Positions 1 to 30,296 of a DNA stretch of 64,000 nt are shown here, one piece after another. The notes under the pieces were generated by a model. The model saw only the letters and a program-made list of their open reading frames with translations. It was not told the DNA's origin and did not search any database. The stretch lies in NCBI GenBank assembly GCA_963777505.1, contig CAVZQN010000004.1:480001-544000 (forward strand), written 5' to 3'. Position numbers and translations under genes: made by a program. This DNA is from an uncultured bacterium (GTDB taxonomy: Bacteria; Acidobacteriota; HRBIN11; JAKEFK01). The stretch's first letter is position 1; each line of letters opens with the position of its first letter.

Positions 1-642
1 ATCTTTAACGATAGCGCTTTTGTCAGTAATGGTTTTTGTCGCAAGAAGCACATTCTGCTTTGCGACCGCTTCCACAAAATTCTTGTTCTTTGAGGTTTTT
101 TCTCCAGATATTCCCGTTACGGATTCAACAGCAGGCTTGATATTGCTGAGCATTGCGGTGATATTTCCAAGCTGAACATTGTCCACAGCTGATTTAATCG
201 CTCCACAGTTTGTGTGCCCCATAATAAGGATCACCTTTGCTCCCGATACTTTTGTTGCAAACTCGATGCTTCCCAAAATATCTGTATTTACGAAGTTGCC
301 TGCGATTCGTGCGTTGAATACGTCACCGATTCCTTTGTCAAAAATGATTTCTGCCGGCTTTCTGGAATCGATACAACTCACAATAATCGCATAAGGATGC
401 TGACCAGCAGCCGCAATATCCTTTTCTTTCAAATAATCTCGATGAAACATTTTGCCTTGAAGAAATCGTTGGTTGCCATCCTTAAATCTTTGTAGAATTT
501 CGGCAGGAGTCATTTGATCCTGCATTTCCTTAGTCATGGCAGGCGGTTGTGTTTGCGCGTTGGCTATCTTTGCAGACATCAGACCATTTGCGGCGAAAAC
601 GATAACCAAATAAACAAACATAAGCAAGAGTGCTTTTTTCAT
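1..642 (-). CDS. beta-class carbonic anhydrase with N-terminal signal peptide (3' end runs off window)
   Basis: Not in ORF track. Manual translation from ATG at 642 (RBS GAGGAG): MKKALLLMFVYLVIVFAANG...GNQRF...GQHPYAIIVSCIDSR...NARIAGN...GSIEFA...MGHTNCGAIK, with beta-CA zinc ligands CxD and HxxC. Confidence 0.92.
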   Translation of the reverse strand, partial: MKKALLLMFVYLVIVFAANGLMSAKIANAQTQPPAMTKEMQDQMTPAEILQRFKDGNQRFLQGKMFHRDYLKEKDIAAAGQHPYAIIVSCIDSRKPAEIIFDKGIGDVFNARIAGNFVNTDILGSIEFATKVSGAKVILIMGHTNCGAIKSAVDNVQLGNITAMLSNIKPAVESVTGISGEKTSKNKNFVEAVAKQNVLLATKTITDKSAIVKD

Positions 643-15231: not shown

Positions 15232-16154
15232 CCAAATAGATTTTTCACTACAAACCAAACATTTGCAGGACGTTCTGCAAGACGTCTGATGTACCATGGG
15301 AACCAGTACGATCCATAGCTGATTAACACACGCACACGAAAGCCTTCCTCAGCGAGTCTTTTTTGTTCCCCGGTCTGAATTCCATATAAGAGTTGATACT
15401 CATAATCTTTGCCAGATAATCCAATTGCGACAGCTGCATTTTGAATCTGTGAGATCAGGTTGCCATCATGAGTTGCTATCCCTAGAGTCAGTTGATCGGA
15501 ACGGATATGTGCTAAAAGTGTTTTTGCGAGTTTCATATAATTCGCATCTACATCGCTTTTATTTGGAAATGCAACTGACTTTGGTTCTGCATAGGCTCCT
15601 TTTACCAACCTGATGGCAGGTGATAAAGGGATAAGTTGTTCAATATCCTGGGCTGTTCTATATAGATATGCTTGTAAACAAACACCTGTATTTGCAAAAT
15701 TCTTCCGTATGCGTTTGTAGATGTTGAGCGTTCGATCAACATACTGGCTTTGTTCCATATCGATCCAGATCCAGTTGTTTCTTTTTGCCGCTTCGTCTGC
15801 AAGTGATGCAGTATTTTCATAGCAAAGATCTTCATTTAGATCCAGGCCAAGTTGGGTTAACTTTACTGAAATGTAGCCATCGATATTGCGTTTCTGAATC
15901 GTCTCCAATGCATTTTTGTAATGTTGTGTAACGTTTTTCGCTTCAGTTGAATCAGAAATGTTTTCACCAAGTTGTGTAAGGATTGAGTTAATTCCTTTTC
16001 TTTGAAGGACCTCAGCTGCAGAAAGAGCTTCTTCCAGGGTTTCACCCGGCATAAATCTTGTCACCGCTTTTCGAATGAAACGATAACGAGGCAAAGAAGC
16101 GCGCAGTTTTCGATTTTCTGAAACCCACAGGAGGGCATTACGGGATATTCCCAT
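15228..16154 (-). CDS. Monofunctional proline dehydrogenase
   Basis: ISVKLTQLG, IDME, LQAYL, RLVKGAY, ATHD, YIRRLAERPAN. Confidence 0.93.
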   Translation of the reverse strand: MGISRNALLWVSENRKLRASLPRYRFIRKAVTRFMPGETLEEALSAAEVLQRKGINSILTQLGENISDSTEAKNVTQHYKNALETIQKRNIDGYISVKLTQLGLDLNEDLCYENTASLADEAAKRNNWIWIDMEQSQYVDRTLNIYKRIRKNFANTGVCLQAYLYRTAQDIEQLIPLSPAIRLVKGAYAEPKSVAFPNKSDVDANYMKLAKTLLAHIRSDQLTLGIATHDGNLISQIQNAAVAIGLSGKDYEYQLLYGIQTGEQKRLAEEGFRVRVLISYGSYWFPWYIRRLAERPANVWFVVKNLFG

Positions 16155-16192
16155 GCTACATTGTGCAGGAAGAAAGATAAGATGTGAAGCAT

Positions 16193-16257
16193 GTGAGAAT
16201 AGAGGATAGAGAATGAGGATTGCGACTGCTATCTTCTATCTTCTATTCTCAATTCTC
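16193..16257. repeat. Inverted heptamer arrays (GAGAATA/GAGGATA versus CTATCTT/CTATTCT); similar arrays at 2048-2115 and 45347-45398
   Basis: gagaatagaggatagagaatgaggat ... ctatcttctatcttctattctcaattctc. Confidence 0.6.
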
Positions 16258-16589
16258 AGGAATGCTCGCAATCTTTTAGATTCAGAGATGCGTTTACTTG
16301 GGTAGATTTTTTGTTTGAGGTAAGTGAGCCAGCTGTTCGCAACATCAGCAGGCTTCCAAATAGATGTGTACTGGTAGGTGCCTTTAACTTCTTTTCGAGA
16401 AACTGCCCCGATGCGTACAAGGCGATCAAGTGTCATTTTTACGGTAGCAAATACGACCTCGGATCCGTCAACCAGAAGCATGGATTGAACACGTGCCGCT
16501 GAAATCGTCCCGCCATTCCATAAACTGCGGAGTACATCAATTTCTGTATCGTTTAAAAGTTTTGGATTTTCCCTTCGTCTTCTGGGCAT
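16236..16589 (-). CDS. Second, divergent BlaI-family winged-helix regulator
   Basis: RBS AGGAGA + ATG 16589; LNDTEIDVLRSLW...FATVKMTLDRLVRIGAVSRK..YQY. Confidence 0.75.
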   Translation of the reverse strand: MPRRRRENPKLLNDTEIDVLRSLWNGGTISAARVQSMLLVDGSEVVFATVKMTLDRLVRIGAVSRKEVKGTYQYTSIWKPADVANSWLTYLKQKIYPSKRISESKRLRAFLRIENRR

Positions 16590-16818
16590 GGTCTCTCCTG
16601 ATAATGAAAGCAATTCTGCTAATATGGGATGCTTTCCTGTGACTTCCTTTCTTTATAGGAATTCCTTAAATCGCTGTATCTAAGTTATTCAGCTTTCGAT
16701 GTCGTGCAATTGATTGTCGAGGAATTTGAGAAAAAAGTACCCAATTTAGCGTGTTCTGGTTTATTCTTTGTTTCTCCAGGGCCTCGAGCGTCACAAATCG
16801 AACCCGGGAGAATTATGA

Positions 16819-18162
16819 ATGGCCAACGATAAACTTCCTGAAAAAACTCCGAAACTGACGCCCATTCAATGGGTCATTTGTGCTGTAGCTGCGCTTGGTT
16901 TTGCCTTTGATATTTATGAAATATTGATGTTGCCCTTGATCGTCAGGCCGGCTCTTCTGGAGCTTGGAAAGGTTCAGCTAGGGAGTCCTGAATTTGCATA
17001 CTGGCGCGATATGTTGTTTTATCTGCCGGCTATTTGCGGTGGGATCTTTGGTTTGCTCGGTGGCTATTTAACGGATCTTCTTGGACGTCGACGTGTTTTA
17101 GTCTGGTCAATTCTTTTATACGCTTTTTCAGCCTGTGCTGCCGGATTTACAACATCATTACCCTGGCTTGTATTTTTCCGTTGCACAACTTTCATCGGAG
17201 TCTGTGTTGAATTTGTAGCCGCAGTTGCATGGCTTGCTGAATTATTTCCGAATCCTAAACAAAGGGAATCTGTTCTCGGTTACACACAGGCATTTTCTTC
17301 AATTGGTGGCCTTCTTGTAACAGGTGCTTATTATCTTGCTGTTACTTATGGTGATTCATTTCCTGCCATTCATGGAGCGCATTCAGCATGGCGTTACACT
17401 TTAATTTCCGGACTCATTCCTGCGATTCCATTGATCATCATCCGTCCGTTCCTTCCTGAATCCACAACATGGGCCAGGAAAAAAGCGGAAGGAACTTTGA
17501 AAAGGCCAAGTTTTGCTGAGCTTTTTCAGCCGCAATATCGTAAGACAACACTTGTAACTACATTGATGTTTGCATGCAGTTACGGAGCTGCATTTGGAGC
17601 CATTCAACATCTCCCACAAATCGTTCCAGGGTTAGCAGAGGTAAAGGAACTTGCGAGACCTATACAACAGAAAATTGTTAGTTCAGTGCAGTTCTGGCAA
17701 GAGATGGGGGGATTACTCGGACGTTTCATTCTTGCATTTCTCGCAATCAGGATTCTGAGCCGCCGGCGTCTGTTGAGAATATTTCAAATTCCTGGACTGA
17801 TCATCATTCCGCTTGTGTTTTTATATCCTGCTACGAACGACTTGCAGACTTTAAAGTGGGGAGTTTTAATTGCTGGATTATTGACAGTCGCTCAGTTTAG
17901 TTTTTGGGGAAATTATTTGCCGCGAGTCTATCCTACTCATTTGCGCGGGACGGGAGAAAGTTTCGCAGCCAATATTGGCGGACGCATGATTGGAACTTCC
18001 GCCGCACTATTGACGACGCAAGTCTCACGTTTCATGCCTCCTGGAACACCTTCAGTGAAATTAGCATACGCTGCGGCATGTGTCGCTTTATTTGTTTACG
18101 CAATGGGACTACTTCTAAGTTTTTGGTTGCCTGAACCTAAACACCAGGAATTGCCTGAGTAA
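16819..18162 (+). CDS. MFS transporter
   Basis: About 12 TM; motif A GYLTDLLGRRR; YPTHLRGTG. Confidence 0.9.
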   Translation: MANDKLPEKTPKLTPIQWVICAVAALGFAFDIYEILMLPLIVRPALLELGKVQLGSPEFAYWRDMLFYLPAICGGIFGLLGGYLTDLLGRRRVLVWSILLYAFSACAAGFTTSLPWLVFFRCTTFIGVCVEFVAAVAWLAELFPNPKQRESVLGYTQAFSSIGGLLVTGAYYLAVTYGDSFPAIHGAHSAWRYTLISGLIPAIPLIIIRPFLPESTTWARKKAEGTLKRPSFAELFQPQYRKTTLVTTLMFACSYGAAFGAIQHLPQIVPGLAEVKELARPIQQKIVSSVQFWQEMGGLLGRFILAFLAIRILSRRRLLRIFQIPGLIIIPLVFLYPATNDLQTLKWGVLIAGLLTVAQFSFWGNYLPRVYPTHLRGTGESFAANIGGRMIGTSAALLTTQVSRFMPPGTPSVKLAYAAACVALFVYAMGLLLSFWLPEPKHQELPE

Positions 18163-18207
18163 TTCGAAAGTAGTGTTATTATTCCTTTATTAGTTCGGAG
18201 GTGAGCG

Positions 18208-19546
18208 GTGAGCAATGGTGGATTAAAAAGCATTTTTAACATCAAGAAAGAGGAGCTTCCGTTTTCCCTCTTGATGGCGACCTACTTCTTTCTGGTAATC
18301 TCGAGCTTCTGGATTGTAAAGCCGATCAAAAAATCTCTTTTCATATCCTATTACAAAGCTGCTGGCGGTTTTGATTTGTTTGGGTGGCATCTGCTGGGAT
18401 CCCAGGGAGAATTATTAGCCAAAGTTTTAAATATGTTCGTTGCTGCCGTTGCGGTAATTGTATTTACAATACTCGCCCGCAAATATTTTCGGCAGCAGTT
18501 AACCATAATCTTTTCCATTTTTTCCATTATTTGTTTTGTTATCTACAGGATGCTTCTTCAAAATCCGGGAGGAGGCACAGTTTGGAGCCTTTATCTCTTT
18601 GGCGATCTTTATAACACATTGATGGTTCCAACATTCTTTGCATTTTTAAACGACAGTGTTAACGGCGATCAGGCGAAGACGATTGTACGGCCTGGTTGGA
18701 TTTGGCGGAGTTTTGGGAGGTGCGGTAGGGGCGACGACTCTTGCGGCCTTTATAAATAACGTTTCAAACGAGTCATGGATGCTGATTATGGCTGGCATCG
18801 TGGTATTGATCATGATCATTGCGATACTAGCATCACGTTACATCCCGGTGAAAGGCAAACCTCCTGAAGTGGCCAAAGCTACCGCCGATGATAAGGAAAG
18901 CAATGCCGCAGTTGAAGGTGCAAGACTTGTTTTCAAATCACGTTATCTATTAGCGATTGTCGGTATTGTTGGCTTCTATGAAATGGTTTCTACGATGATG
19001 GATTTTCAGTTTTCGTCAAGCGTTGAACATTTCGTTTCTGGAGAAAATATAGGTGCTCACTTCTCACGCGTCTTTTCAATCACAAATATTGTTGCTTTAG
19101 TTGTGCAGCTCTTCTTAACCAGTTTTGTCATGACCAAGTTTGGTGTTGGCACAGCCTTGTTGGTGCTTCCTGTAACGGCAATGTTGGGATCGCTCGGTTT
19201 TATGCTCTTCCCAAGACTATGGACAGGCAGTTTTCTAAACACAGCGGACAATGGTTTCAGTTATTCCATTAATCAATCCGCCCGCGAAGCATTGTATGTT
19301 CCGACTACCAGGGAAGAAAAATATAAAGCAAAAGCCTTCATTGATATGTTTGTTCAGCGTTTCGCAAAAGCGGTTGCCGTAGGCATCAGTCTATTGTTAA
19401 CTACATTTTTTGCTGATTTCAGCACAATTCGATGGTTATCTCTTGTTGTTGCTGTAATCCTGGTAGCATGGATTTTTGCCGCAAGATATGCTGGCCGCAA
19501 GTTTGACGAAAAAACAGGCAGTCCTAAGGCTGTGGCAGCAGACTGA
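18208..19546 (+). CDS. Npt1/Npt2 (TLC, ATP/ADP translocase family) nucleotide transporter, frameshifted near 18677
   Basis: ORFs 18208-18759 and 18656-19546 join into about 445 aa; KPIKKSLF, QAK/RLYGLVGFGG, YSINQSAREALYVP..EKYKAKAFIDMFVQRFAKA. Confidence 0.82.
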
Positions 19547-19633
19547 GAAGTGATAGGGAATTCTCCTCTTGCTACAGATTTGAATTCCTCTTATGATGGA
19601 TGTGTCCCCCACATCACCGGCAAAGGAAAATAA

Positions 19634-21115
19634 ATGAACGTACTCCTCGTCTATCCTGAATATCCTCCAACGTATTGGAGTTTTCGTTTCGCTGTTCCAT
19701 TTCAAGGTAAAAAAGCGTCATATCCACCACTTGGATTAATGACGATTGCACCACTTCTTCCAAAGTCATGGACAAAAAAGCTTGTTGATTTGAATACTGA
19801 CAAACTTGAAGACCGTGATATCAAGTGGGCCGATGTAATCATGGTCAGCGCGATGATTGTTCAGAAGAAATCAACTGTTGAAGTTGTCCGGCGATCTAAA
19901 GCGATGGGGAAAGTTGTTGTTGCTGGTGGTCCACTGTGGGCAAAGGATCCTGACTGTATAGAAGGGGTCGATCATGTCATTGTCGGTGAAGCAGAGTATT
20001 TACTTCCGGAATTCATTCGCGACTTCGAGCAAGGAGTAGCAAAACAGTCATACTCCGCAACGGATATGCCGAATTTAAAAGATACACCTATGCCGGATTT
20101 TGATTTGATCAATATAAAGAACTACAGCTCAATGCTTGTGCAATTCTCCCGCGGATGCCCATTCAATTGCGAATTTTGTGACATCATCGAGATCTTTGGA
20201 CGCAAAGCCAGAGGAAAGGGATTCGATCAGTTCATTAATGAACTTGATTTGCTTTATAGCAAAGGTTGGAAAGGTTCAGTATTTATTGTCGATGACAATT
20301 TTATTGGCAATAAGACAACCATCAGGAACCTTCTTCCTCATCTAATCAGATGGCAAAAAGCACACAGTTATCCCTTTAGTTTCTTTACTGAAGCTTCAGT
20401 AAATCTCGCGCGCGAAGATGACATGCTCGAAATGATGGTTGAAGCAGGATTCCGAAAAGTATTTTTAGGAATTGAAACGCCTGTTGAAGAAAGTTTGAAA
20501 CATACTCAGAAAATGCAAAATACAACAATGGATCTTGTTGAGGCTGTTCGAAAAATTCAACACGCGGGAATGGAAGTCTTAAGTGGATTCATTGTCGGTT
20601 TTGATTCAGACCCTGATGATGTTTTTACGCGCGTCATCGAATTCATTCGAAAGGCAGCAATTCCAGTTTCAATGGTCGGTCTACTTTCTGCGCTGCCAGG
20701 GACTCAATTGACTCGACGGTTGATCAAAGAAGGACGTTTACTGAAAGAAAGCGCCGGAAGTAATACGTACATGGATTTAAATTTCATTCCCGTAATGGAT
20801 GCGAAGAAGTTGATCGATGGTTATAAGAAGATTATCGGGCATATTTATGAGCCAAGGGAATACTACGAACGTGTACTTGAATTCTTGTCGCACTATAAAC
20901 CGCGAATTCGGCAAAGGACAAAATTTCGAGATGTCTTCGCGTTTGGAAACTCTATGCTCAAGCAGGGAATATTAACTTCTGGACAACTTCACTATTGGAA
21001 ATTTCTTGTTAGGGCATACCGTCGCAATTCGGCGGCATTCTCCGAAGCCGTTACGTTGGCCATCATGGGCTACCACTTCAAGAAAGTCAGCCAAATAGAA
21101 TTGGGTTATCAATAG
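19634..21115 (+). CDS. B12-binding radical SAM protein (DUF4070 C-terminus)
   Basis: PPLGLMTIA, SRGCPFNCEFCDI (CxxxCxxC), VDDNFIGN, AIMGYHF. Confidence 0.92.
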   Translation: MNVLLVYPEYPPTYWSFRFAVPFQGKKASYPPLGLMTIAPLLPKSWTKKLVDLNTDKLEDRDIKWADVIMVSAMIVQKKSTVEVVRRSKAMGKVVVAGGPLWAKDPDCIEGVDHVIVGEAEYLLPEFIRDFEQGVAKQSYSATDMPNLKDTPMPDFDLINIKNYSSMLVQFSRGCPFNCEFCDIIEIFGRKARGKGFDQFINELDLLYSKGWKGSVFIVDDNFIGNKTTIRNLLPHLIRWQKAHSYPFSFFTEASVNLAREDDMLEMMVEAGFRKVFLGIETPVEESLKHTQKMQNTTMDLVEAVRKIQHAGMEVLSGFIVGFDSDPDDVFTRVIEFIRKAAIPVSMVGLLSALPGTQLTRRLIKEGRLLKESAGSNTYMDLNFIPVMDAKKLIDGYKKIIGHIYEPREYYERVLEFLSHYKPRIRQRTKFRDVFAFGNSMLKQGILTSGQLHYWKFLVRAYRRNSAAFSEAVTLAIMGYHFKKVSQIELGYQ

Positions 21116-21148
21116 AACTCATAGCGTAAAACGTTTCATCTTCTCAAT

Positions 21149-21547
21149 ATGCTGCTGCGGGTCATCTTTTTTCTGTTTGGCGTATGTTCCCTCATCAATG
21201 GCCTATGGATGTTGATTGCCCCTGAGTCGTGGTACAACGATTTGCCGGCTGCTGTACCTGATACCGGCCCATATAATGGCCATTTCATTCGCGATCTTGG
21301 CCTCGTTTTCGTCTTGATAGCGGGGGGATTCTTTTGGAGCGCATACCGGCTTTATCAATCCAGGCTGGTTCTCTTGTTGATAACAGCATTTTTTACAGGA
21401 CACGCGATCTTACATGTTTTGGATCTTCTTACATCCAGGCTTCCCCATTCACACTGGAAAATAGATACTCCAGCAGTGTTTCTGCCCGCTATCCTGTTGA
21501 TTTTTCTCAGTTTTGTTGCCAGCCGATATCGAGGAGAGTCACTTTAA
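21149..21547 (+). CDS. Small 4-TM membrane protein
   Basis: TGPYNGHFIRDLG motif, hydrophobic helices. Confidence 0.75.
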   Translation: MLLRVIFFLFGVCSLINGLWMLIAPESWYNDLPAAVPDTGPYNGHFIRDLGLVFVLIAGGFFWSAYRLYQSRLVLLLITAFFTGHAILHVLDLLTSRLPHSHWKIDTPAVFLPAILLIFLSFVASRYRGESL

Positions 21548-21638
21548 TCATTTTTTCGAGAATTTCATGCTCTTGTGTTATCTTATGTTGATCCAACTGG
21601 AGGTTGGGACGTTCGATAACCAAATAAAAAGAGGTTGT

Positions 21639-22896
21639 ATGCAAATGGACTGTAGACCAGAGAGGAAGAAAAGCTTTAATTTTTGGGGGTCAATTTTTTT
21701 GAAAAGTACCTTAATTGTTGTTTTGATGCTGAGTTTTACATTTTGCAGCGTGGTTTCAGCACAATCCACGCGCACGGAAGAAATTACACAGGCACAGGCA
21801 GAAAAAGCAAAAGTTTTGAAACCATATGTTCCAAATAAGGCGGAGCGGATCATCATGCGCTTGCAAGAGCTCCCTTTTGTGGGTGGTGCTCCTAAAGGAT
21901 GGTATCCCTTCCTTGGAAGTGCTTTTCCAAGTGGTGGTATTGCAGGTGGACCCGGTTATCGAGCCTTAATCGGAGATACGGGTTATTTCGATATTCACGG
22001 CGCATGGTCTATTTCAAATTACAGAATGGCAGACACGACTTTGCGTCTTCCTGATTTCGGTGGTGGAGTTTTTAAAACCCAATTCAATGGTCATTATGCT
22101 CATGCGGATAAAGTTCGATTTTTCGGAATTGGAAACGATACGTCTGAAGACGATTTAACTCGTTATACGTACAAACCCCTTTCACTTAGGTATTACAGAA
22201 AGGATTGAACCCTCTGATTGGTTTGCTCTTGGTGTTGGCGTTGATTATTTATTGCTTGAAAATGATACGGGTGGCGGAACTGATCCATCGATTGAAGAAG
22301 AGTTCAATTCTATTACAGCTCCTGGTTTGTTTATTGATTTCGAATATATACGACCCCGTGCTTTTGTGGAAATCGACTGGCGCGAGGCTCCCGGTTACAC
22401 AACAAGTGGAGGCTTTTATCGCGCAGATTGGTCGAGATATTCAGAACGTGATATACAAGGGTTTGATTTTGATCGTGTCGATCTTGAAGTCGATCAATTC
22501 TTCCCATTGCTCCGCGCCAACTGGGTGCTCGCGTTGCGCGGGATGGCTTCAACCACAAGCGTAGATGACGGAGACGAGGTTCCATATTTTCTGTTGCCTC
22601 GTTTAGGTGGTGGAAATTATTTACGCGGATTTCCTGACTTCCGATTTATCGATCGGAATCGATTGCTATTAACGGCTGAAATTCGATGGACGCCATCAAA
22701 ATTCCTCGATATGGCTATCTGGTACGAAGCAGGTAAAGTAGCAGCAGATAGATCAGACCTGGATCTTGAGGATCTGCACGATTGTTATGGAATTGGAGCC
22801 CGATTCCATGGTCCATTATCAACGCCTTTACGAATCGAACTTGCCTTTAGCGATGAAGCAACACGACTCATAATCAGCGCAGGCGCGTCATTTTAA
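21639..22896 (+). CDS. Omp85 (BamA/TamA) family outer-membrane barrel lacking obvious POTRA domains, frameshifted near 22185
   Basis: Signal peptide; loop-6 motif LGGGNYLRGFPDFRFID; YGIGARF; C-terminal beta-signal IISAGASF. Confidence 0.82.
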
Positions 22897-22908
22897 CGGG
22901 GGGCAATC

Positions 22909-24570
22909 ATGAAAAATTATATTAAGAAAAAATTGGTTCTGGTGATGAGTTCCGTTTTCATGTTGGCTTTCAGTTGTGCAATATTTGCTGCACCAAAATT
23001 TTATCCCGATGATCCGATTTTAGTTGAGCCTGATTCTCAGGATGCTTCAGGAGCGGAGTCCTGGGATATTAATCTCATTTATGACATTAGTGAGAATTTG
23101 TTTACTAAACCTGGCGACAAGACTCCAAATGTACGTGCTCAAAACATCAACACGATTGATGAGGTTCCAAATTCGAGCTGGTTTACGAATCGGGAAAATC
23201 TGACCCCGGAAATGGTTGCCAAAGCAGTCGATACATCAACTGGACCTGCTCCTGGAAAATGGATGGTTGTTGGTAGTAAAAGCGATGGTGTTTCTCCAGG
23301 GTTCACAATCAAAGATTCGAATGATGTTCGATGGTTCATCAAGTTTGATCCTCCTGATTACCGAAGCATGGCAACTGGAACCGAAGTGGCTGCAAGCAAA
23401 CTATTTTGGGCACTCGGGTTTAATATTCCGGAATATCACATTTCCAGACTCGTGCCCGCAGATCTGGAGATCGCTGAAGGGACATCGATTCGGCTTCCAA
23501 CTGGCAAAAAGCGGGCTATGAATACAGGAGATATTCACAAGCTTTTGAAGCTGGCTGAAAAGGATCCGGATGGATCGTATCGAATCATTGCTAGTAAAGC
23601 TTTGGATGGCAAAATTCTTGGCGGCTTCAGATTCTATGGCACGCGTCCTGATGATCCAAATGATATCTATCCACATGAACATAGAAGAGAATTACGCGGT
23701 TATAGTGTGTTCGCGGCCTGGTTGAATCACGTTGATTTAAAATCAAATCAATCGATGGACACTTTGATTGAGCAAGATGGCAAATCTGTTGTGAAACATC
23801 ATCTCCTCGATTTTAGTTCGACTCTTGGAAGTGGATCGAATCGCGCGCGTGTACCATGGGAAGGATACGAACGACTTTATGAGGGAGGCGGCAATATTGG
23901 AAAAAATGTAGTCTCCCTGGGTTTTCGAATTGCTCCCTGGCGTACAGTCGATTTGTATGAATCAAGTAGTGTTGGAAAAATGACATTTGACAATACTGAA
24001 TGGGATCCGGAAGCGTGGGTTCCGCGCGTTTCTATGGCATCACTTCTGAGAGCGAGGCCTGATGATAAATTTTGGGCAGCGCGGAAAGTAATGGGTATTT
24101 CTGATGAAATGATTCGTGTCTCAATTGAAGCTGGCCAGTTTGATGATGCAGAGGGTACAGAATTTTTGACAACAGCTTTGATTCAACGTCGTAATCAAAT
24201 TGGTAAAGCTTATTTGCCCGCCGTCAATCCTGTTGTTGATCCTGTGTTATCGGATGACGGTACACTAAAGTTTGCAAATGCAGCTGTCGATGCGGGTTTT
24301 GCGAAAGCTCCCGCAAACTATACAGTTACATGGCACCGTTTCGATAATTCAACAGGGACCGCAACTCGCATTGGTAGTAGTGGCAATTCAGCGACTCAGG
24401 TTAAGGCTCCTGCAAATCTTCCAAATGATGATGGGACATATTTGAAACTTGAAATTAATGCGCAGGATCCGTCTTATCCTACATGGGAACAACCGATCCA
24501 TGTATATTTCCATCGCACAGGTGGTGCATGGAAATTGGTTGGACTCGAGAGGTTGCCGAATCAGCAATAG
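22909..24570 (+). CDS. Exported protein with atypical (HipA/PI3-4K-like) kinase motifs
   Basis: Signal peptide; KSDGVSPGF, FIKFD, TGTEVAAS, NHVDLKSNQ, LLDFSSTLG. Confidence 0.65.
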   Translation: MKNYIKKKLVLVMSSVFMLAFSCAIFAAPKFYPDDPILVEPDSQDASGAESWDINLIYDISENLFTKPGDKTPNVRAQNINTIDEVPNSSWFTNRENLTPEMVAKAVDTSTGPAPGKWMVVGSKSDGVSPGFTIKDSNDVRWFIKFDPPDYRSMATGTEVAASKLFWALGFNIPEYHISRLVPADLEIAEGTSIRLPTGKKRAMNTGDIHKLLKLAEKDPDGSYRIIASKALDGKILGGFRFYGTRPDDPNDIYPHEHRRELRGYSVFAAWLNHVDLKSNQSMDTLIEQDGKSVVKHHLLDFSSTLGSGSNRARVPWEGYERLYEGGGNIGKNVVSLGFRIAPWRTVDLYESSSVGKMTFDNTEWDPEAWVPRVSMASLLRARPDDKFWAARKVMGISDEMIRVSIEAGQFDDAEGTEFLTTALIQRRNQIGKAYLPAVNPVVDPVLSDDGTLKFANAAVDAGFAKAPANYTVTWHRFDNSTGTATRIGSSGNSATQVKAPANLPNDDGTYLKLEINAQDPSYPTWEQPIHVYFHRTGGAWKLVGLERLPNQQ

Positions 24571-24586
24571 TTCTGCATTCATGACT

Positions 24587-24611
24587 GGGCGGGTCTTAGA
24601 CCCGCCCCTAC
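24587..24611. repeat. GTAG-family REP (family 1), single copy
   Basis: gggcgggtcttagacccgcccctac. Confidence 0.85.
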
Positions 24612-24720
24612 CTTAATCGGGAATATTTAGATGGAATGAAGTCCCGCTTGTTCCATCTTTATTGACCTTTTTTCGCTGTGAGATTTTAATTTGTCGTCAA
24701 GCCCACTCAGGAGGTTAACA

Positions 24721-27111
24721 GTGCAAAAGTCTTCATTTGTACGCATTTTTTCGATTCTGACCGTTGTTCTTTTATCAACATCCGTTTTTGCATCCGATTG
24801 GCCGGCGTTTCGTGGGCCAAATAATGACGGAAGCGCCTCGGATGGAAAATTCATTCCCCCTGCAGGTGCCGCTCTAGCCGTAGCTTGGAAATCGGCAATA
24901 GGCTCCGGGTATTCCAATATTGCCGTAGCCAATGGTCGTGTTATCACCCTCTTTTCTGATAAAGAGAATGATGTTGCTGCCGCATTTGATTCAGCATCCG
25001 GAAAAGAACTCTGGCGCTATACGATCGGTCCAAAGTACAAAGGACATGATGGTTCGCAAGATGGTCCGATAGCGACACCTGTAATTGCAGATTCAATCGT
25101 TTATGGATTTGGCGCGCATGGTCATCTGTTTGCATTGAATCTTGAGACAGGCAAACCAGTATGGGCTGTTCAGGCTGCTGAAAAACATGGAGCCAAAGCG
25201 CCGGTATATGGTTTTTCTGCATCTCCGGTAGTTGCTGGAGGCGTCCTTGTTGTTGAAATAGGCGGAGATTCTGGCAAAGCGATTGCCGGATTCGATTTAA
25301 AAACAGGCGAGCAACTCTGGACTGCTGGCGAAGACAAAATAAATTATCAATCTCCAGTTGTGTTAAAAAGCGGCGGCAAGGAAGTTGTTGCTGCAATCGG
25401 TGATACGAAATTATTTTTACTTGATCCTGCCTCAGGAAAAGTCCTTTTAGAATATCCGCATGGTGGTGATTCAGCTGAAGTTGTCGTTCCGCTGCCAGTT
25501 GAAAATGACCGGGTGCTTCTGCCTGTTGGTCAAGAAAAAGCAGACCTGGTAAAAATTGTTACTGGCGCAGATGGAAAATTTGCAGTTGAAAAAGTTTGGA
25601 GTGCGGGTGTTTTCAAAAATACATACGCAGTCCCTGTTTATTACAAAGGACATCTTTATGGCTATAACGGTCGCATCTTAACGTGTGTGGATGCTGCTGA
25701 TGGCACTGTTAAATGGAGATCTCGTGAACCTGGCGATGGGTGGCTTCTCGTTGCTGATGGAAATCTCGTAGTTCAAACCAAGAAAGGAACGGTGCATGTC
25801 GCGCCTGCAACTCCGGAAGGATGGAAAGAAATTGCGCAGGTAGAACTTTTTAAGGGCATTTCCTGGGCCCATCCTGTCTATGCATCCGGCGGTGTTTTTT
25901 CGCGGAGTTTTGGTGAGCTGGCGCGATTAGAATGGCGCACCGACAAAGCAGCGGCAGCTGTTGAATCGATAACAACAGACGGATCGCGCTTTGCCAAATT
26001 CATTTCCGAACTTGGCGCGGCATCAGACAAGAAAGCAGCAGTTGATCAATACTTTGCTTCAGTTAAACAGTACCCAATTGTTGAATGGCCTGATTACATT
26101 CATTTTGTCTATCGCGGCGATGCGGAAGATATGGGTATTTCAGGGGATATGATTGGATCGCTTCGTGAAGAACCAATGCAACGCGTTGAAGGTACGGATC
26201 TGTTTTATTATTCAGTGCGCTTGGAACCTGATGCTCACATTCTTTACCGCTTTCATCGCAATTATGATGAACAAATTGCGGACCCAAACAATCCTTACAA
26301 AATTTTAGACCGCCGTGGCAGTCCAATGTCGTACATACCCATGCCCGGTTACAAATCGCCAGAATTTTTGAAAGAAGCTCCTGCATCTAAAAAAGGAAAA
26401 GTTGAGGCACGTGAATTTACAAGTACTAAAAGAAAAGGTGCATCAGCCAAATTAAGCATTTACGTTCCTGCGAATTACGCATCCTCCAAAGACAAATATC
26501 CCGTTGTGTATCTATTTGACGGTGCGATGGCACAAAAGCAGGGTCTTCTACCCACTATCCTTGATAACCTTATCGGCAATGAAATACAGCCGCTGATCGC
26601 TGTAATGATCGATGAAATGAAAACAGGAGAAACGCCGATAGAAGATCAATCGGAAGATATTAAGGTTAGATCTGAAATGTTAGCAAAAGAAATTGTGCCA
26701 TGGATTGATTCGAATTTTAGAACAGTTACAGATTCCAAGAGCCGCGCAGTAATGGGACCAGGAGGAGAATCAATCACTGCATTTTATACAGCCTTTCACC
26801 ATCATGACACCTTCGGAGGTGTTGTAGCACAAACTGTATTTACAGCTGAGCGTTCTGAAGTTGGTCTTGGAAACTTTGTGCCGAACGCCAATGAAGTTCC
26901 GATGAGGATTTACCTGGATTGGGGAATTTATGATTCCCGCGCGCCGTTAGAAGGTTGGGATACACGTCGCGATAGCAAGAGATTTCATTCATTGTTTCTA
27001 GAACGGGGCTACAGACCCGCAGGCGGCGAAGTTCATGAAGGTGCGGGTTGGCCGAACTGGCGCAATCGCGCTGACAAATGGCTTGCAGCACTCTTTCCAA
27101 GCGGATCGTAA
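24721..27111 (+). CDS. PQQ/BamB-like beta-propeller + Ig-like domain + Fes-type alpha/beta-hydrolase fusion (paralog 1)
   Basis: RBS AGGAGG + GTG 24721; signal peptide; DWPAFRGP; propeller repeats; IYVPANY..KYPVVYLFDG; EIVPWIDSNF. Confidence 0.85.
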   Translation: MQKSSFVRIFSILTVVLLSTSVFASDWPAFRGPNNDGSASDGKFIPPAGAALAVAWKSAIGSGYSNIAVANGRVITLFSDKENDVAAAFDSASGKELWRYTIGPKYKGHDGSQDGPIATPVIADSIVYGFGAHGHLFALNLETGKPVWAVQAAEKHGAKAPVYGFSASPVVAGGVLVVEIGGDSGKAIAGFDLKTGEQLWTAGEDKINYQSPVVLKSGGKEVVAAIGDTKLFLLDPASGKVLLEYPHGGDSAEVVVPLPVENDRVLLPVGQEKADLVKIVTGADGKFAVEKVWSAGVFKNTYAVPVYYKGHLYGYNGRILTCVDAADGTVKWRSREPGDGWLLVADGNLVVQTKKGTVHVAPATPEGWKEIAQVELFKGISWAHPVYASGGVFSRSFGELARLEWRTDKAAAAVESITTDGSRFAKFISELGAASDKKAAVDQYFASVKQYPIVEWPDYIHFVYRGDAEDMGISGDMIGSLREEPMQRVEGTDLFYYSVRLEPDAHILYRFHRNYDEQIADPNNPYKILDRRGSPMSYIPMPGYKSPEFLKEAPASKKGKVEAREFTSTKRKGASAKLSIYVPANYASSKDKYPVVYLFDGAMAQKQGLLPTILDNLIGNEIQPLIAVMIDEMKTGETPIEDQSEDIKVRSEMLAKEIVPWIDSNFRTVTDSKSRAVMGPGGESITAFYTAFHHHDTFGGVVAQTVFTAERSEVGLGNFVPNANEVPMRIYLDWGIYDSRAPLEGWDTRRDSKRFHSLFLERGYRPAGGEVHEGAGWPNWRNRADKWLAALFPSGS

Positions 27112-27126
27112 ACTCTAATAGTAGAC

Positions 27127-27204
27127 TAGGGGCGGGTGCAGAGGACGAGAGTTTCTCCGAAGCACTGTCGTCGCCACTCGGCAGTTTCCAAGACCCACCC
27201 CTAC
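27127..27204. repeat. REP family 1 copy with a roughly 50-nt expanded interior
   Basis: taggggcgggt...agacccacccctac. Confidence 0.7.
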
Positions 27205-27227
27205 AATTTATGCAAGGAGACCGGTAG

Positions 27228-29615
27228 ATGCCTCTATTCTTAGCGCTTATCTTGTTGCTTTCTTTCAGTAGCTCTACTTTTGCTTCAGTTGAATGGCCCA
27301 GTCTTCGTGGTCCAGCTTATGACGGGACTACCAAGGGTGGAAATTTCGCGATTTCGGATGGCGCACTCGACGTTGCATGGAAAACTGCAATTGGTCCAGG
27401 ATATTCCGGCGTGACGATCGTAAACGGTAAAGCAATCACGATGTTCTCCGATGGTTCTCATGATTTTGCAGCATCCTTTGATGCAACATCAGGAAAAGAA
27501 ATCTGGCGATACAAGATTGCAGAAACATATAAAGGTCATGATGGATCCCATGATGGACCGATTGCTACTACAGTAGTAGCTGGCGGACGTGTTTTTGGAT
27601 TTGGCGCTTGGGGTCACCTTTTTGCGCTGGATCTAAATACCGGCAAATTAATTTGGTCCAAAAATGCCGTGGAATTGGGTGGACAAAAACCTTTTTATGG
27701 TTTTGGCTCATCACCGGTGGTTGTCGATGGAGTTCTGGTTGTTGAAATCGGTGCGAAAGAAGGGAAAGCGATCGCTGCATTCGACGTAACAAATGGCGAA
27801 CGTAAATGGATGTTGGGCGATGATGTTGTCAGTTATCAAACTCCAATCACCATCACCTTCAATGGAAAGGAACAAGTTGTTGCCGTTGGAGATAAAAAAC
27901 TTTTCGGCATCGATCCATCCGGCAAAATATTGTGGGAGTATGCCCATGAGGGTGACGACAGGCCGATGGCTTCCGGCAGTTTAATACCGGTCCCTGCAGG
28001 CGACGGAAAGCTGTTATTAAAAAATAAATCGGAAACATCCACATTAATAAAGCTTGTGAGCTCAGCCGATGGAAAGATGAATGCTGAAAATGTCTGGACT
28101 GCTGGAGTCTTCAAAAATACTTACAGTGTTCCTGTTTATCATGATGGTTATTTTTTCGGACATAATGGAAGAATCCTGACGTGTGTTGATGCAGCAAACG
28201 GTGAATTGAAGTGGAGATCACGCGCACCAGGCGATGGCTTTCTGATTGTTGTAGATGGGCATCTTGTCGTTCAAACAAAAGCCGGAAGTTTGCATGTCGC
28301 AAAGGCCAGCCCGGAAGGCTGGGTCGAAAAATCAATGCTTGAATTATTTCCAGCTTCTTCATGGACGTCTCCAAGTTTTGCAGATGGTGCTGTGTTTGCC
28401 CGCAGTCAGGGCGAAATTGCACGCATTGAATGGAAATCGCAAGTGAGTGCAACTGCTTCTCCAGCTGTTACCGGCAGCGTTTCTCCTGCTTCAGATTTTG
28501 GGAGTTTCCTAACACGATTAAATTCAGCTCCTGATAAGAAAATCGCTGTTGATGAATTTCTCGCTTCTGTGAAGTCTTATCCTCTGATTGAGTGGCCCGA
28601 TCAAGTCCATTTTTTGTATCGCGGCGATGCCGAAGATATGGGAATTTCAGGCGATATGACCGGTGCACGGCGGGAAGATCAAATGAAGCGTGTTCCTGGG
28701 ACGGATCTTTTTTATTACTCAATTAAACTCGAACCAGATGGACGATTGAATTACTTTTACATCAAGAATTATGAACAGATCATTGCAGATCCGCATAACG
28801 GTCGTCTGACGCAAGATCGCCGTGGGAATCCGAATTCATGGTTTTCAATGCCCGCCTGGGATGAACCTTCTTACTTAAATGATGCACCTGAAGAACGCCG
28901 TGGACGATTACAAACTCACGAATTAAAGAGTACGTTACGTCCGGGTGGGGGCGTTAATTTCGAAGTTTATCTTCCCGCTGGCTATGATACAAACACCAAA
29001 CGGTATCCTGTACTTTATCTCTTTGATGGGCCTGCTGCGAAAACACAAGGAATGATTGTGAATGCATTCGACAATCTGATGGGAACTCTGGCGCAACCTG
29101 TGATCGTTGTTCTAATGGATGAGATAAAAACAGGAGAAAAGCCGTTAGAAGAGGTGAAAGAGGAACTCGATGCAAGTGTTGTGGTTCTTGCAAAGGAGTT
29201 AGTCCCTTTTATTGATTCTACTTATCGAACCATTAAAGACGTAAAATCGCGTGCGGCCATGTCCTCCGGTTTTTGGTCTCCTACCGCTTATTATGCTGCG
29301 TTCAAAAATCAAGGATTATTTGGTGCGGTTGGTTCCCAATCCGCTTTCCTGATGGGCGAAGAATACCAGCTGCTGAAAGATTCAGTCAGTTCACCAGGGG
29401 ATAACCCGTTGCGGATGTATATAGATTGGGGTTCGTATGATATTCGGGCAACTCGCGAAGGCTGGGATATGGTCAAAGAAAACAGAGAATTCATTTCGTT
29501 TTTCAGAGACAAAGGGTTCTACCCAGCAGGTGGCGAATTCCATGATGGAACTGGCTGGACAAGCTGGCGAAATCGCACCGATCGCTGGTTAACGGCATTG
29601 TTTCCAATTCAATAA
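27228..29615 (+). CDS. PQQ/BamB-like beta-propeller + Ig-like domain + Fes-type alpha/beta-hydrolase fusion (paralog 2)
   Basis: EWPSLRGP; shares YKGHDGSxDGPIAT, AGVFKNTY and YRGDAEDMGISGDM with paralog 1. Confidence 0.85.
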   Translation: MPLFLALILLLSFSSSTFASVEWPSLRGPAYDGTTKGGNFAISDGALDVAWKTAIGPGYSGVTIVNGKAITMFSDGSHDFAASFDATSGKEIWRYKIAETYKGHDGSHDGPIATTVVAGGRVFGFGAWGHLFALDLNTGKLIWSKNAVELGGQKPFYGFGSSPVVVDGVLVVEIGAKEGKAIAAFDVTNGERKWMLGDDVVSYQTPITITFNGKEQVVAVGDKKLFGIDPSGKILWEYAHEGDDRPMASGSLIPVPAGDGKLLLKNKSETSTLIKLVSSADGKMNAENVWTAGVFKNTYSVPVYHDGYFFGHNGRILTCVDAANGELKWRSRAPGDGFLIVVDGHLVVQTKAGSLHVAKASPEGWVEKSMLELFPASSWTSPSFADGAVFARSQGEIARIEWKSQVSATASPAVTGSVSPASDFGSFLTRLNSAPDKKIAVDEFLASVKSYPLIEWPDQVHFLYRGDAEDMGISGDMTGARREDQMKRVPGTDLFYYSIKLEPDGRLNYFYIKNYEQIIADPHNGRLTQDRRGNPNSWFSMPAWDEPSYLNDAPEERRGRLQTHELKSTLRPGGGVNFEVYLPAGYDTNTKRYPVLYLFDGPAAKTQGMIVNAFDNLMGTLAQPVIVVLMDEIKTGEKPLEEVKEELDASVVVLAKELVPFIDSTYRTIKDVKSRAAMSSGFWSPTAYYAAFKNQGLFGAVGSQSAFLMGEEYQLLKDSVSSPGDNPLRMYIDWGSYDIRATREGWDMVKENREFISFFRDKGFYPAGGEFHDGTGWTSWRNRTDRWLTALFPIQ

Positions 29616-29870
29616 ATCGTGTAGAATGGTGTTGCTGCACCCGATAGGGTTAGAGACATAGTTTTATCGGGGAGTAGGTTTGTTACTGCGTTCGTCCAGA
29701 GTGTCCATTACTCATAGCTAATCATCCCAGGAATAGCTACAGGTGTGCGCAGTCCACCTTCCTCTTGGTTTTTTATTAAAAGGTTTTTAATGTTCAACTT
29801 CCAACTCCAGATTTCTCTTCGTCAGGAAGAGAGTCAGGAACTAACTTCACGATTTCGATGGAGGAGTCAG

Positions 29871-30296
29871 ATGTTACGAGCAAATAAATTGCTCATTTCG
29901 TTTCTAACCATAGCCTTGGTTTCGTTTCTTGTTCTTGGATCCGGAACCCTTTTCGCAGGAGAAAAGAAAGAGGCAGCAAAGAACGATAAAAACACAAAAA
30001 GTGTCTCTGCCATGAAGGTTGGCAAAGATCCTGAAAAAACACTTCGACCTGTAACAAAGAAAGAAGACAAAGAGCTATCAGGGCGGTTAAATGAGACGCT
30101 TAAGAAATATCCGCCTCATGAAGTTCAAAAGCGCGGCGATGGGACACAGTCGAAAGTGGTCGCTCCACAGTTCTTAAATTTCAGCATTGCAACTGTTGGC
30201 AGCAATGGCAAGGTAACTCACACTTGTGTCAAAGGCGAGAAAAAACATATTGATCAGACACAAGCCCAAGTTCAATCACAGCCGGAGGAAAAGTAA
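29871..30296 (+). CDS. Small exported basic protein upstream of the peptidase
   Basis: RBS GGAGGAG + ATG 29871; signal peptide; RGDGTQS...FSIATVGSNGKVTHTCV; stop overlaps next ATG. Confidence 0.75.
   Translation: MLRANKLLISFLTIALVSFLVLGSGTLFAGEKKEAAKNDKNTKSVSAMKVGKDPEKTLRPVTKKEDKELSGRLNETLKKYPPHEVQKRGDGTQSKVVAPQFLNFSIATVGSNGKVTHTCVKGEKKHIDQTQAQVQSQPEEK

Follow-up and report, generated by a model that had tools for sequence, protein, structure and literature searches.

The stretch of DNA analysed here, hereafter the window, comprises 64,000 nucleotides of contig CAVZQN010000004.1 from the assembly of an uncultured Acidobacteriota bacterium (GCA_963777505.1). Between 16.8 and 29.6 kb every long open reading frame (ORF) of the window lies on the + strand (Table 1), and within this run we focus on two adjacent genes, which code for an Omp85 outer membrane barrel devoid of POTRA domains and for an exported protein of 553 amino acids (aa), here called K553, that has the fold of a protein kinase. 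The Omp85-K553 gene pair is widespread and undescribed. Among 80 loci encoding K553 relatives, most of them labelled as Acidobacteriota or Vicinamibacterales metagenome-assembled genomes (MAGs), 79 have an Omp85 gene as the immediate upstream neighbour of K553, and the 80th (L032) starts inside K553, with no upstream DNA on its contig; a pairing of 79/80 indicates that the arrangement is not due to chance. We suggest that the two products may form an anchored phosphotransferase of the periplasm, and that a nucleotide exchanger of the TLC/NTT family, a member of which is coded upstream of the pair, might supply it. A preliminary description of this DNA had listed a transporter, a radical-SAM gene, a small membrane gene, a POTRA-less Omp85 and the signal-peptide protein K553, and all of them are present on the + strand where it had placed them.

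Table 1 Features of the window in and around the Omp85-K553 pair
Feature	Position	Strand	Remarks
Major facilitator superfamily (MFS) transporter	16819-18162	+	Relative in 1/80 related loci; not core module
TLC/NTT-family MFS transporter, short form (~446 aa intact)	18208-19546	+	Two frames here: 18208-18759 and 18656-19546
B12-binding radical-SAM/DUF4070 protein	19634-21115	+	Pfam DUF4070 124.9, Radical_SAM 59.4, B12-binding 41.3 bits
Small membrane protein, 132 aa, weakly DUF4345-like	21149-21547	+	Pfam DUF4345 at 21.4 bits (under the cut-off, 26.5)
Omp85 barrel of the noNterm (POTRA-less) type; signal peptide, then two short periplasmic helices at the N terminus	21639-22896	+	Two frames: ATG 21639-22208 and ~22183-22896
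K553, exported atypical kinase-fold protein, 553 aa	22909-24570	+	Begins 12 bp past the Omp85 stop
K553 motif R246-P-D-D-P-N-D ... H256-E-H-R-R-E-L-R263	23644-23697	+	Predicted docking surface for the Omp85 N-terminal helix
K553 catalytic-loop-like N273-H-V-D276-L-K278-S-N-Q281-S-M-D284 and Mg-binding-like D301-F-S	23725-23817	+	Assigned by motif position in the secondary structure of the model
Two tandem paralogs, signal peptide and PQQ-type beta-propeller, then esterase (enterochelin-esterase-like) domain	24691-27111, 27228-29615	+	

The product of the Omp85 gene begins with a signal peptide (...VVSA/QSTR). The gene is interrupted in the window by a frameshift, and its C-terminal piece, a fragment for this reason, scores 23.4 bits with Pfam Omp85 (PF01103, cut-off 24) and 61 with NCBIfam NF047779 (cut-off 200); the intact ortholog of a related locus, L005, reaches 46.8 bits with the Pfam profile and is matched by the two halves of the window gene at 176 and 312 bits. 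An AlphaFold2 model of this ortholog, built with 34 sequences (predicted local distance difference test [pLDDT] of 88.6), consists of two N-terminal helices and 16 strands, and Foldseek matched it to the barrels of BamA and TamA with E values of 6e-13 to 1e-11, a probability of 1.00 and TM scores of 0.6-0.67. The mature protein measures ~389 aa, and two helices (residues 4-18 and 26-39) alone precede strand 1, which leaves no room for a POTRA domain. The window sequence keeps the invariant R4, K15 and E28 of these helices, as well as an L6 motif, YLRGF, and a strand-13 motif, WYEAGK, the consensus of 34 orthologs being TLRGY and FYDAGK and the published definitions being (V/L)RG(F/Y) for L6 and an F-x-D-x-G type for strand 13 (PMC11358297).

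K553 consists of a signal peptide (residues 1-27, ...AIFA/AP), an N-terminal wrap (28-110), a kinase-like domain (110-446) and an FN3-like domain (439-537), and its mature sequence contains zero cysteines. At an E value of 0.01 or lower it falls into no curated family of Pfam or NCBIfam, including Fam20C, PI3_PI4_kinase, HipA, CotH and Pkinase. The relatives of K553 are numerous: of 8000 candidates scored, at least 7781 are homologous at E <= 0.001, and K553 matches 3355 representatives of 50%-identity clusters, 819 of them at E <= 1e-30. The 120 homologs that we listed carry no Pfam domain, and the sole name they bear is "hypothetical protein." A look-up in the Atlas returned unnamed Acidobacteriota clusters, and the named ones, at 0.79-0.81 and thus under the mark of 0.9, are leads only, the nearest being a bacterial Fam20C-domain cluster (0.81). 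The 10 long homologs that we examined (684-1158 aa) contain no informative fused domain; one of them gives a sub-threshold Omp85 match, which is probably read-through.

The AlphaFold2 model of K553, based on a 45-sequence alignment, is confident (pLDDT of 93.2 and a predicted template modeling score of 0.91), and its structural relatives are kinases. The best match by VIA is Helicobacter pylori CtkA (PDB 3akk; Z of 14.9, 241 aligned residues, root mean square deviation of 4.4), followed by Fam20C (Z of 13.6 over 253 residues, N-terminal extension included), PI4KII-alpha (12.7), HipT/HipA (12 down to 9.8), CotH (11.8) and the actin-fragmin kinase (11.7), while Foldseek gave a probability of 1.00 to both CtkA and Fam20C. 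Residues 37/110-446 thus adopt a bilobal kinase fold, with Z values of 14.9 to 11.7 to six kinase families, and the kinase fold that the preliminary description had ascribed to the 553-aa protein is borne out. Residues 439-537 form an FN3-like sandwich (VIA Z of ~8).

The motifs expected of a phosphotransferase are well conserved. In the orthologs of K553 the N-x-x-D-x-K-x-x-N loop, which reads HVDLKSNQ in the window (274-281), keeps its Asp in 34/34 sequences and its Lys and Asn each in 33/34, and the Asp of the DFG/DVG motif, LLDFS in the window (299-303), is kept in 34/34. More widely, D-x-[KR]-x-x-[NQ] is found in 202 of the 213 homologs with a locatable motif, out of 270 stored. The corresponding residues of the window protein are D276, K278, Q281 (usually Asn in this family) and D301, and from the positions of the motifs in the secondary structure of the model we can assume that they sit in the active site. 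Gln281 replaces the catalytic-loop Asn in a D-K-Q sub-clade of 27, to which the window protein and its close homologs P0001-P0014 belong. The window protein carries an Asn one residue before Gln281. It also has K145 as beta-3 Lys and E159 as alpha-C Glu, with an invariant Lys (K124) and an invariant Asp (D147) nearby. The residues R246, D249, N251, D252, H256, R260 and R263 are invariant in 45/45 and 34/34 sequences.

As the barrel gene of the window is broken, we predicted the complex with the mature Omp85 and the mature K553 of L005. The interface obtained an ipSAE of 0.89 in 3/3 runs, with a pLDDT of 90 for the partner and at least 90% of the contacts common to the runs, while the three controls gave 0.00, 0.00 and 0.01. 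The mark used for this score was reached by 116/157 solved complexes and by 2/215 mismatched pairs, and it is a rough guide here, where our own alignments were used. On the side of the barrel the interface comprises residues 1-35 (the two helices), 66-72, 98, 209-210, 261-265, 320-330 and 357; those outside the helices are periplasmic turns on the Omp85 model, and helices and turns account for all the contacts of the barrel. On the side of K553 the contacts with the lowest error are those of residues 218-225 of the ortholog (246-253 in the window, R-P-D-D-P-N-D), which is the most invariant stretch of the family, with Omp85 residues 8-16. The N-terminal F-Y-x-D-D-P of K553 contacts the barrel too, and both motifs touch the invariant R4/K15 region of the helices. 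The invariant motifs of both proteins meet in the model, so that the strongest conservation in each of them can be explained as a shared interface. We can predict, then, that the folded K553 sits under the barrel on its periplasmic face. The preliminary description had left it between secretion of the kinase by the Omp85 and docking on it; docking agrees with the score of 0.89 against 0.01 for the best control, and secretion through the barrel is not favoured, since the model places the folded K553 in the periplasm.

The transporter of the run, also frameshifted in the window, is a member of the TLC/NTT family. Its C-terminal piece lies above the gathering score of Pfam TLC (PF03219; 64.7 bits, cut-off 21), the intact L005 ortholog scores 75.5 bits and four other neighbours score 52-66. 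The L005 ortholog matches the solved plant plastid NTT1 (9j3j) with an E value of 1.2e-13, and the two have in common the motif K-E-x-x-Y-x-P ... K-x-K-x-K-A-x-I-D. NTT and NTT-HEAT genes have been reported in free-living bacteria, where they are unexplained, and all the functionally characterised NTT/TLC proteins come from parasites or plastids, according to PMC5381601. The host of the window is presumably free-living, to judge from its genome of 5.2 Mb and its Acidobacteriota-labelled MAG relatives.

We have analyzed the neighbours of K553 in the 80 loci by clustering 974 non-overlapping ORFs in an all-against-all BLAST comparison; here the stop-to-stop ORFs put Omp85 and K553 together, and an antisense shadow of Omp85 made up one cluster. 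A profile built from TLC neighbours detected a TLC-like gene within ~8 kb in 22/80 loci, directly upstream of Omp85, directly downstream of K553 or 1-8 kb off, and 7 loci contain a second, longer one. By chance we would expect ~1 in 80, a rough estimate that assumes a few TLC genes per 5-Mb genome and windows of 16 kb, and hence the neighbourhood of K553 homologs is enriched for such transporters, in several arrangements, as the preliminary description had anticipated. On a tree of K553 from 76 loci and the window, with the truncated-match loci L023, L034, L072 and L083 left out, adjacency to TLC requires at least 9 changes, that is, at least 9 separate placements, compared with 16-20 in the 10 shuffles listed out of 200 label shuffles. 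A PAP2 phosphatase with a signal peptide accompanies the pair in 19/80 loci, 14 of which have TLC too; these phosphatases possess the KX6RP, PSGH and SRX5HX3D motifs and few membrane segments. The gene orders are permuted between clades and include TLC-Omp85-K553-(SDF/SBP)-PAP2 and PAP2-Omp85-K553-TLC, and a metallophosphoesterase is found in 5/80 loci. The SDF/SBP gene codes for a transporter of the sodium:dicarboxylate-symporter family (SDF) fused to a family-3 solute-binding domain; it occurs in 9/80 loci (L006:9674-11836, L007:4516-6678, L043:10867-13194 and 6 more), on the same strand in 8/9. Neighbours resembling MacB/FtsX, histidine kinases, Ser/Thr kinases and TonB receptors (8-16 loci each) were set aside, as their positions and strands vary and we assume them to be abundant in such genomes.

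The same association appears at the level of genomes. In an evenly drawn census of 151 genomes of the phylum, including that of the window (G000) and G049 (counted as both genes, non-adjacent), K553 is present in 29, Pfam TLC in 40 and a TLC-like gene, by our own more sensitive profile, in 63. The TLC-like gene occurs in 24 of the 29 genomes with K553 and in 39 of the 122 without it, counts that overstate independence because the genomes compared are related. K553 and a TLC-like gene lie within 10 kb on one contig in 7/29 K553 genomes (5 genera), a number that must be an under-count, since many of the assemblies are fragmented. The genome of the window contains three K553 modules and three TLC-like genes, two of the latter within 9 kb of a K553 module. 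Apart from the module described above, that of contig C3 lies ~6-9 kb downstream of an NTT-HEAT fusion and is followed at once by a metallophosphoesterase with a signal peptide, and that of C6 is an intact Omp85-K553 pair with neither TLC nor phosphatase as a neighbour. Between the C3 fusion (931 aa, TLC and HEAT repeats; positions 505-3300 of L085, G000:C3:231500-241000) and the Omp85-K553-metallophosphoesterase group downstream of it come a propeller-type histidine kinase, a TMEM260-like glycosyltransferase and a response regulator.

We propose that these components work together in the envelope. The POTRA-less barrel would reside in the outer membrane, and the product of the next gene, the atypical kinase K553, would be exported by Sec, fold in the periplasm and attach itself stably to its own barrel from the periplasmic side, as the complex model, run with controls, predicts. 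There the acidic motifs F-Y-x-D-D-P and R-P-D-D-P-N-D of K553 would clamp the basic invariant residues of the N-terminal helices of the barrel, and K553 would occupy the place that the POTRA domains have in BamA. The conservation of D-x-K-x-x-N/Q and of the DFG Asp makes K553 most likely a phosphotransferase, which may take phosphate from a nucleotide and pass it on to a substrate in the envelope (perhaps a protein, a lipid or a glycan) at the mouth of the barrel. In textbook accounts the periplasm contains no ATP, and kinases are not known to work there. The TLC/NTT carrier of the inner membrane, encoded with the pair in about a quarter of the lineages, including that of the window, would swap cytoplasmic ATP for periplasmic ADP and in this way feed the kinase, while an exported PAP2 or metallo-phosphatase, present in a similar share, would reverse the phosphate mark. 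To this proposal, a periplasmic phosphotransferase that is anchored by Omp85 and may receive its nucleotide from an exchanger, we assign a probability of about 0.4. A broader version, by which diderm bacteria would possess a system devoted to phosphorylation outside the cytoplasm, with TLC exchanging ATP for ADP, the kinase bolted to the barrel marking an envelope component or a molecule in transit through the barrel and the phosphatases erasing the mark, is possible but in our opinion doubtful.

Several observations weigh against this proposal, in addition to the relatedness of the genomes counted. Regarding the supply of ATP, the transporter is a distant member of the TLC family (65 bits with NCBIfam TIGR00769, the NTP/NDP exchange transporter model, for which the cut-off is 387.2), and its characterised NTT/TLC relatives all import or exchange nucleotides, according to PMC5381601. 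A TLC neighbour is absent from 58/80 loci, and 5/29 K553 genomes (G029, G045, G088, G126 and G148) have no TLC-like match at E <= 1e-10. Two of these, G088 and G148, are single-contig genomes that are 99% complete, so TLC is not an obligatory partner. Periplasmic ATP, moreover, could leak through porins. As to the kinase itself, the clade of the window has Gln at the position of the metal-binding Asn, and just 15/34 orthologs retain the canonical beta-3 Lys, and just 15/34 the alpha-C Glu. The window adds points of its own: transporter and barrel are each read with a frameshift, no phosphatase gene adjoins the module and the complex was modelled on the L005 orthologs rather than on the window's own broken pair.

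The same genes could be read as a scavenging system, in which the barrel admits extracellular nucleotides or phospho-compounds, K553 binds or processes nucleotides in the periplasm, the PAP2 and metallo-phosphatases trim them and TLC imports nucleotides. Omp85 barrels, however, are not known to serve as diffusion channels, the residues for phosphotransfer (D, K, N and the DFG D), present in 33-34/34 orthologs, exceed the needs of a binding protein, and the tight one-to-one docking predicted through an invariant interface would be unexpected for a soluble one. This makes scavenging improbable, even though the characterised NTT/TLC proteins take up or exchange nucleotides (PMC5381601), the PAP2 neighbours, with their signal peptide and few membrane segments, resemble secreted acid phosphatases and the SDF symporter/solute-binding fusion adjoins the module in 9/80 loci. 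Another possibility is a route similar to two-partner secretion, by which the Omp85 would export K553 to the surface or the medium as a secreted kinase in the manner of H. pylori CtkA, the best fold match of K553. Passengers that cross a barrel unfolded usually have no cysteine, and neither has the mature K553. The barrel, though, has no POTRA domain to receive a passenger, K553 has no Pfam match and hence no TPS domain, and ATP at the surface would escape to the medium. TpsB-TpsA systems and the passengers suggested for noNterm Omp85 proteins (PMC11358297) provide a precedent, but in our model K553 is folded on the periplasmic side with its most invariant residues in the interface, and we consider its secretion the least probable of the readings discussed here. 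Finally, K553 may be non-catalytic and serve, as a substitute for the POTRA domains or as a plug, to control an Omp85 insertase or translocase, with TLC and the phosphatases as loosely linked envelope genes. This would fit the fact that invariance is highest in the docking interface and not in the active site, as well as the variable beta-3 Lys and alpha-C Glu and the many loci without a TLC gene; a near-invariant catalytic loop and DFG Asp would then be hard to understand, as would TLC and PAP2 neighbours that recur in permuted orders, and we think it improbable too.

A different objection is that the copy in the window is a decaying pseudogene cluster, in which the frameshifts of transporter and barrel are real and the intact C6 pair is the sole one to function. 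Two frameshifts lie within 3.5 kb, and the C3 pair of the same genome is likewise split (G000:C3:240627-243622). In the transporter gene a single surplus base, at 18679/18680, interrupts the frame at a place where the intact ortholog of L005 (L005:3275-4615, 446 aa, 70%-identity locus) reads as a single frame, ...DQAKRLYGLVGFGG..., and where a ~91%-identical relative in a public run, X1, has one base fewer (at 18680). This relative spans the transporter and radical-SAM genes, the site of the Omp85 frameshift being outside its coverage. Of the substitutions listed between the window and X1, 27/40 affect the third base of a codon in the downstream frame of the transporter (190 more differences lie beyond the listing), a bias which indicates that this frame is under selection. 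The Omp85 gene, in turn, owes its two frames to a single surplus C within the C-run at 22176-22179, as seen in the translations of two frames and in the DNA; the preliminary description had made no mention of this frameshift. In G041, a genome of the same genus, the syntenic place is occupied by open frames of 451 and 574 aa. Because each break is a single extra base, the shifted frames contain no further stops, third positions are favoured and the frames of G041 are open, assembly indels are a more likely cause of the two breaks than gene decay, which we regard as unlikely. The single extra bases may reflect a general indel problem of the assembly. No RNA run was found for the stretch, and the single run that matched it did so with a 0.08 share of the sampled words. 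A separate observation on this genome, 95.9% complete, is that rpoB (TIGR02013) and rpoC (TIGR02386) gave no match in it, with controls matching in 14/14 reference genomes.

The proposed phosphotransferase shares parts with several known systems. The barrel resembles the noNterm Omp85 proteins of Leptospira (LIC12252/12254/12258) and Klebsiella (BamK), which have a 16-stranded BamA-like barrel, an L6 (L/V)RG(F/Y) and a strand-13 F-x-D/E-x-G motif and no POTRA domain (PMC11358297 and PMC13059784), but it differs from them in its two conserved N-terminal helices and in an obligate, translationally adjacent partner with a kinase fold. PMC11358297 contains 0 occurrences of the word "kinase" and reports instead lipoprotein and adhesin-like neighbours of noNterm Omp85 genes. 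With the group of HipA, CtkA, PI4KII and the actin-fragmin kinase, its best fold matches, K553 shares the catalytic Asp ... Asn and a DFG-like Asp; the identity, however, is just 12-15%, and K553 is set apart by its Sec export, its N-terminal wrap, its FN3-like tail and its link to an Omp85 barrel. Fam20C and Fam20B likewise have a kinase fold that acts outside the cytosol, and these kinases of the secretory pathway need ATP carried into their compartment. K553 differs from them in having no membership at the sequence level, a bacterial outer membrane barrel as a partner and a candidate ATP carrier of the TLC family. The transporter can be compared with plastid NTT1 (9j3j) and the Npt/Tlc proteins of Chlamydia and Rickettsia through its Pfam TLC score above the cut-off and the motif common with NTT1, and the C3 fusion matches the NTT-HEAT type of PMC5381601; the window transporter differs in its ~446 aa when intact and in its low scores, and the proposed outward direction of ATP is the reverse of the parasite paradigm. 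With TpsB-TpsA the pair has in common a gene for an Omp85-superfamily barrel next to that of a dedicated exported partner, but it has neither POTRA nor TPS domain, and K553, which in our prediction remains folded at the periplasmic side of the barrel, falls outside that class. The preliminary description knew of no system of this composition, and our search of the literature, which covered sources other than the supplementary tables on noNterm Omp85 neighbourhoods of PMC11358297, found no Omp85-kinase or TLC-kinase module; it yielded papers on noNterm Omp85 proteins (PMC11358297, PMC4104836 and PMC13059784) and on the diversity of NTT proteins, with no link between these and a partner of kinase fold.

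The combination of a kinase fold, an outer membrane anchor, a recurrent transporter similar to nucleotide carriers and exported phosphatases would make a nucleotide-driven chemistry of the envelope directly testable. If the proposal is true, the system would be a periplasmic counterpart of the Fam20 kinases of the Golgi, and it would provide a first function for a class of POTRA-less Omp85 proteins and for the unexplained NTT/TLC genes of free-living bacteria (PMC5381601). Even without the step of ATP supply, the predicted Omp85-K553 complex would represent a new kind of partner for an Omp85 protein.

Scans of 16000-30000 stayed at the level of shuffled sequences, with 16 sigma-70 promoter sites (23.3 in the shuffles) and 17 intrinsic terminators (14.6), and thus set no limits to the operon. 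The remaining genes of the run are outside the core module. The radical-SAM gene has a relative in just 3/80 loci, so we consider it a lineage-specific passenger, and the DUF4345-like gene has one in 1/80. Two distant loci contain weaker relatives of the radical-SAM/DUF4070 protein (L011:3429-4946 and L012:4006-5535; E values of 1e-26 to 1e-28), likewise 5' of an Omp85-K553 pair. The PQQ-esterase genes recur in 2/80 loci and are not core either: the propeller/esterase paralogs are kept 3' of K553 in L005, and L045 has one related gene on the opposite strand, ~6 kb off.

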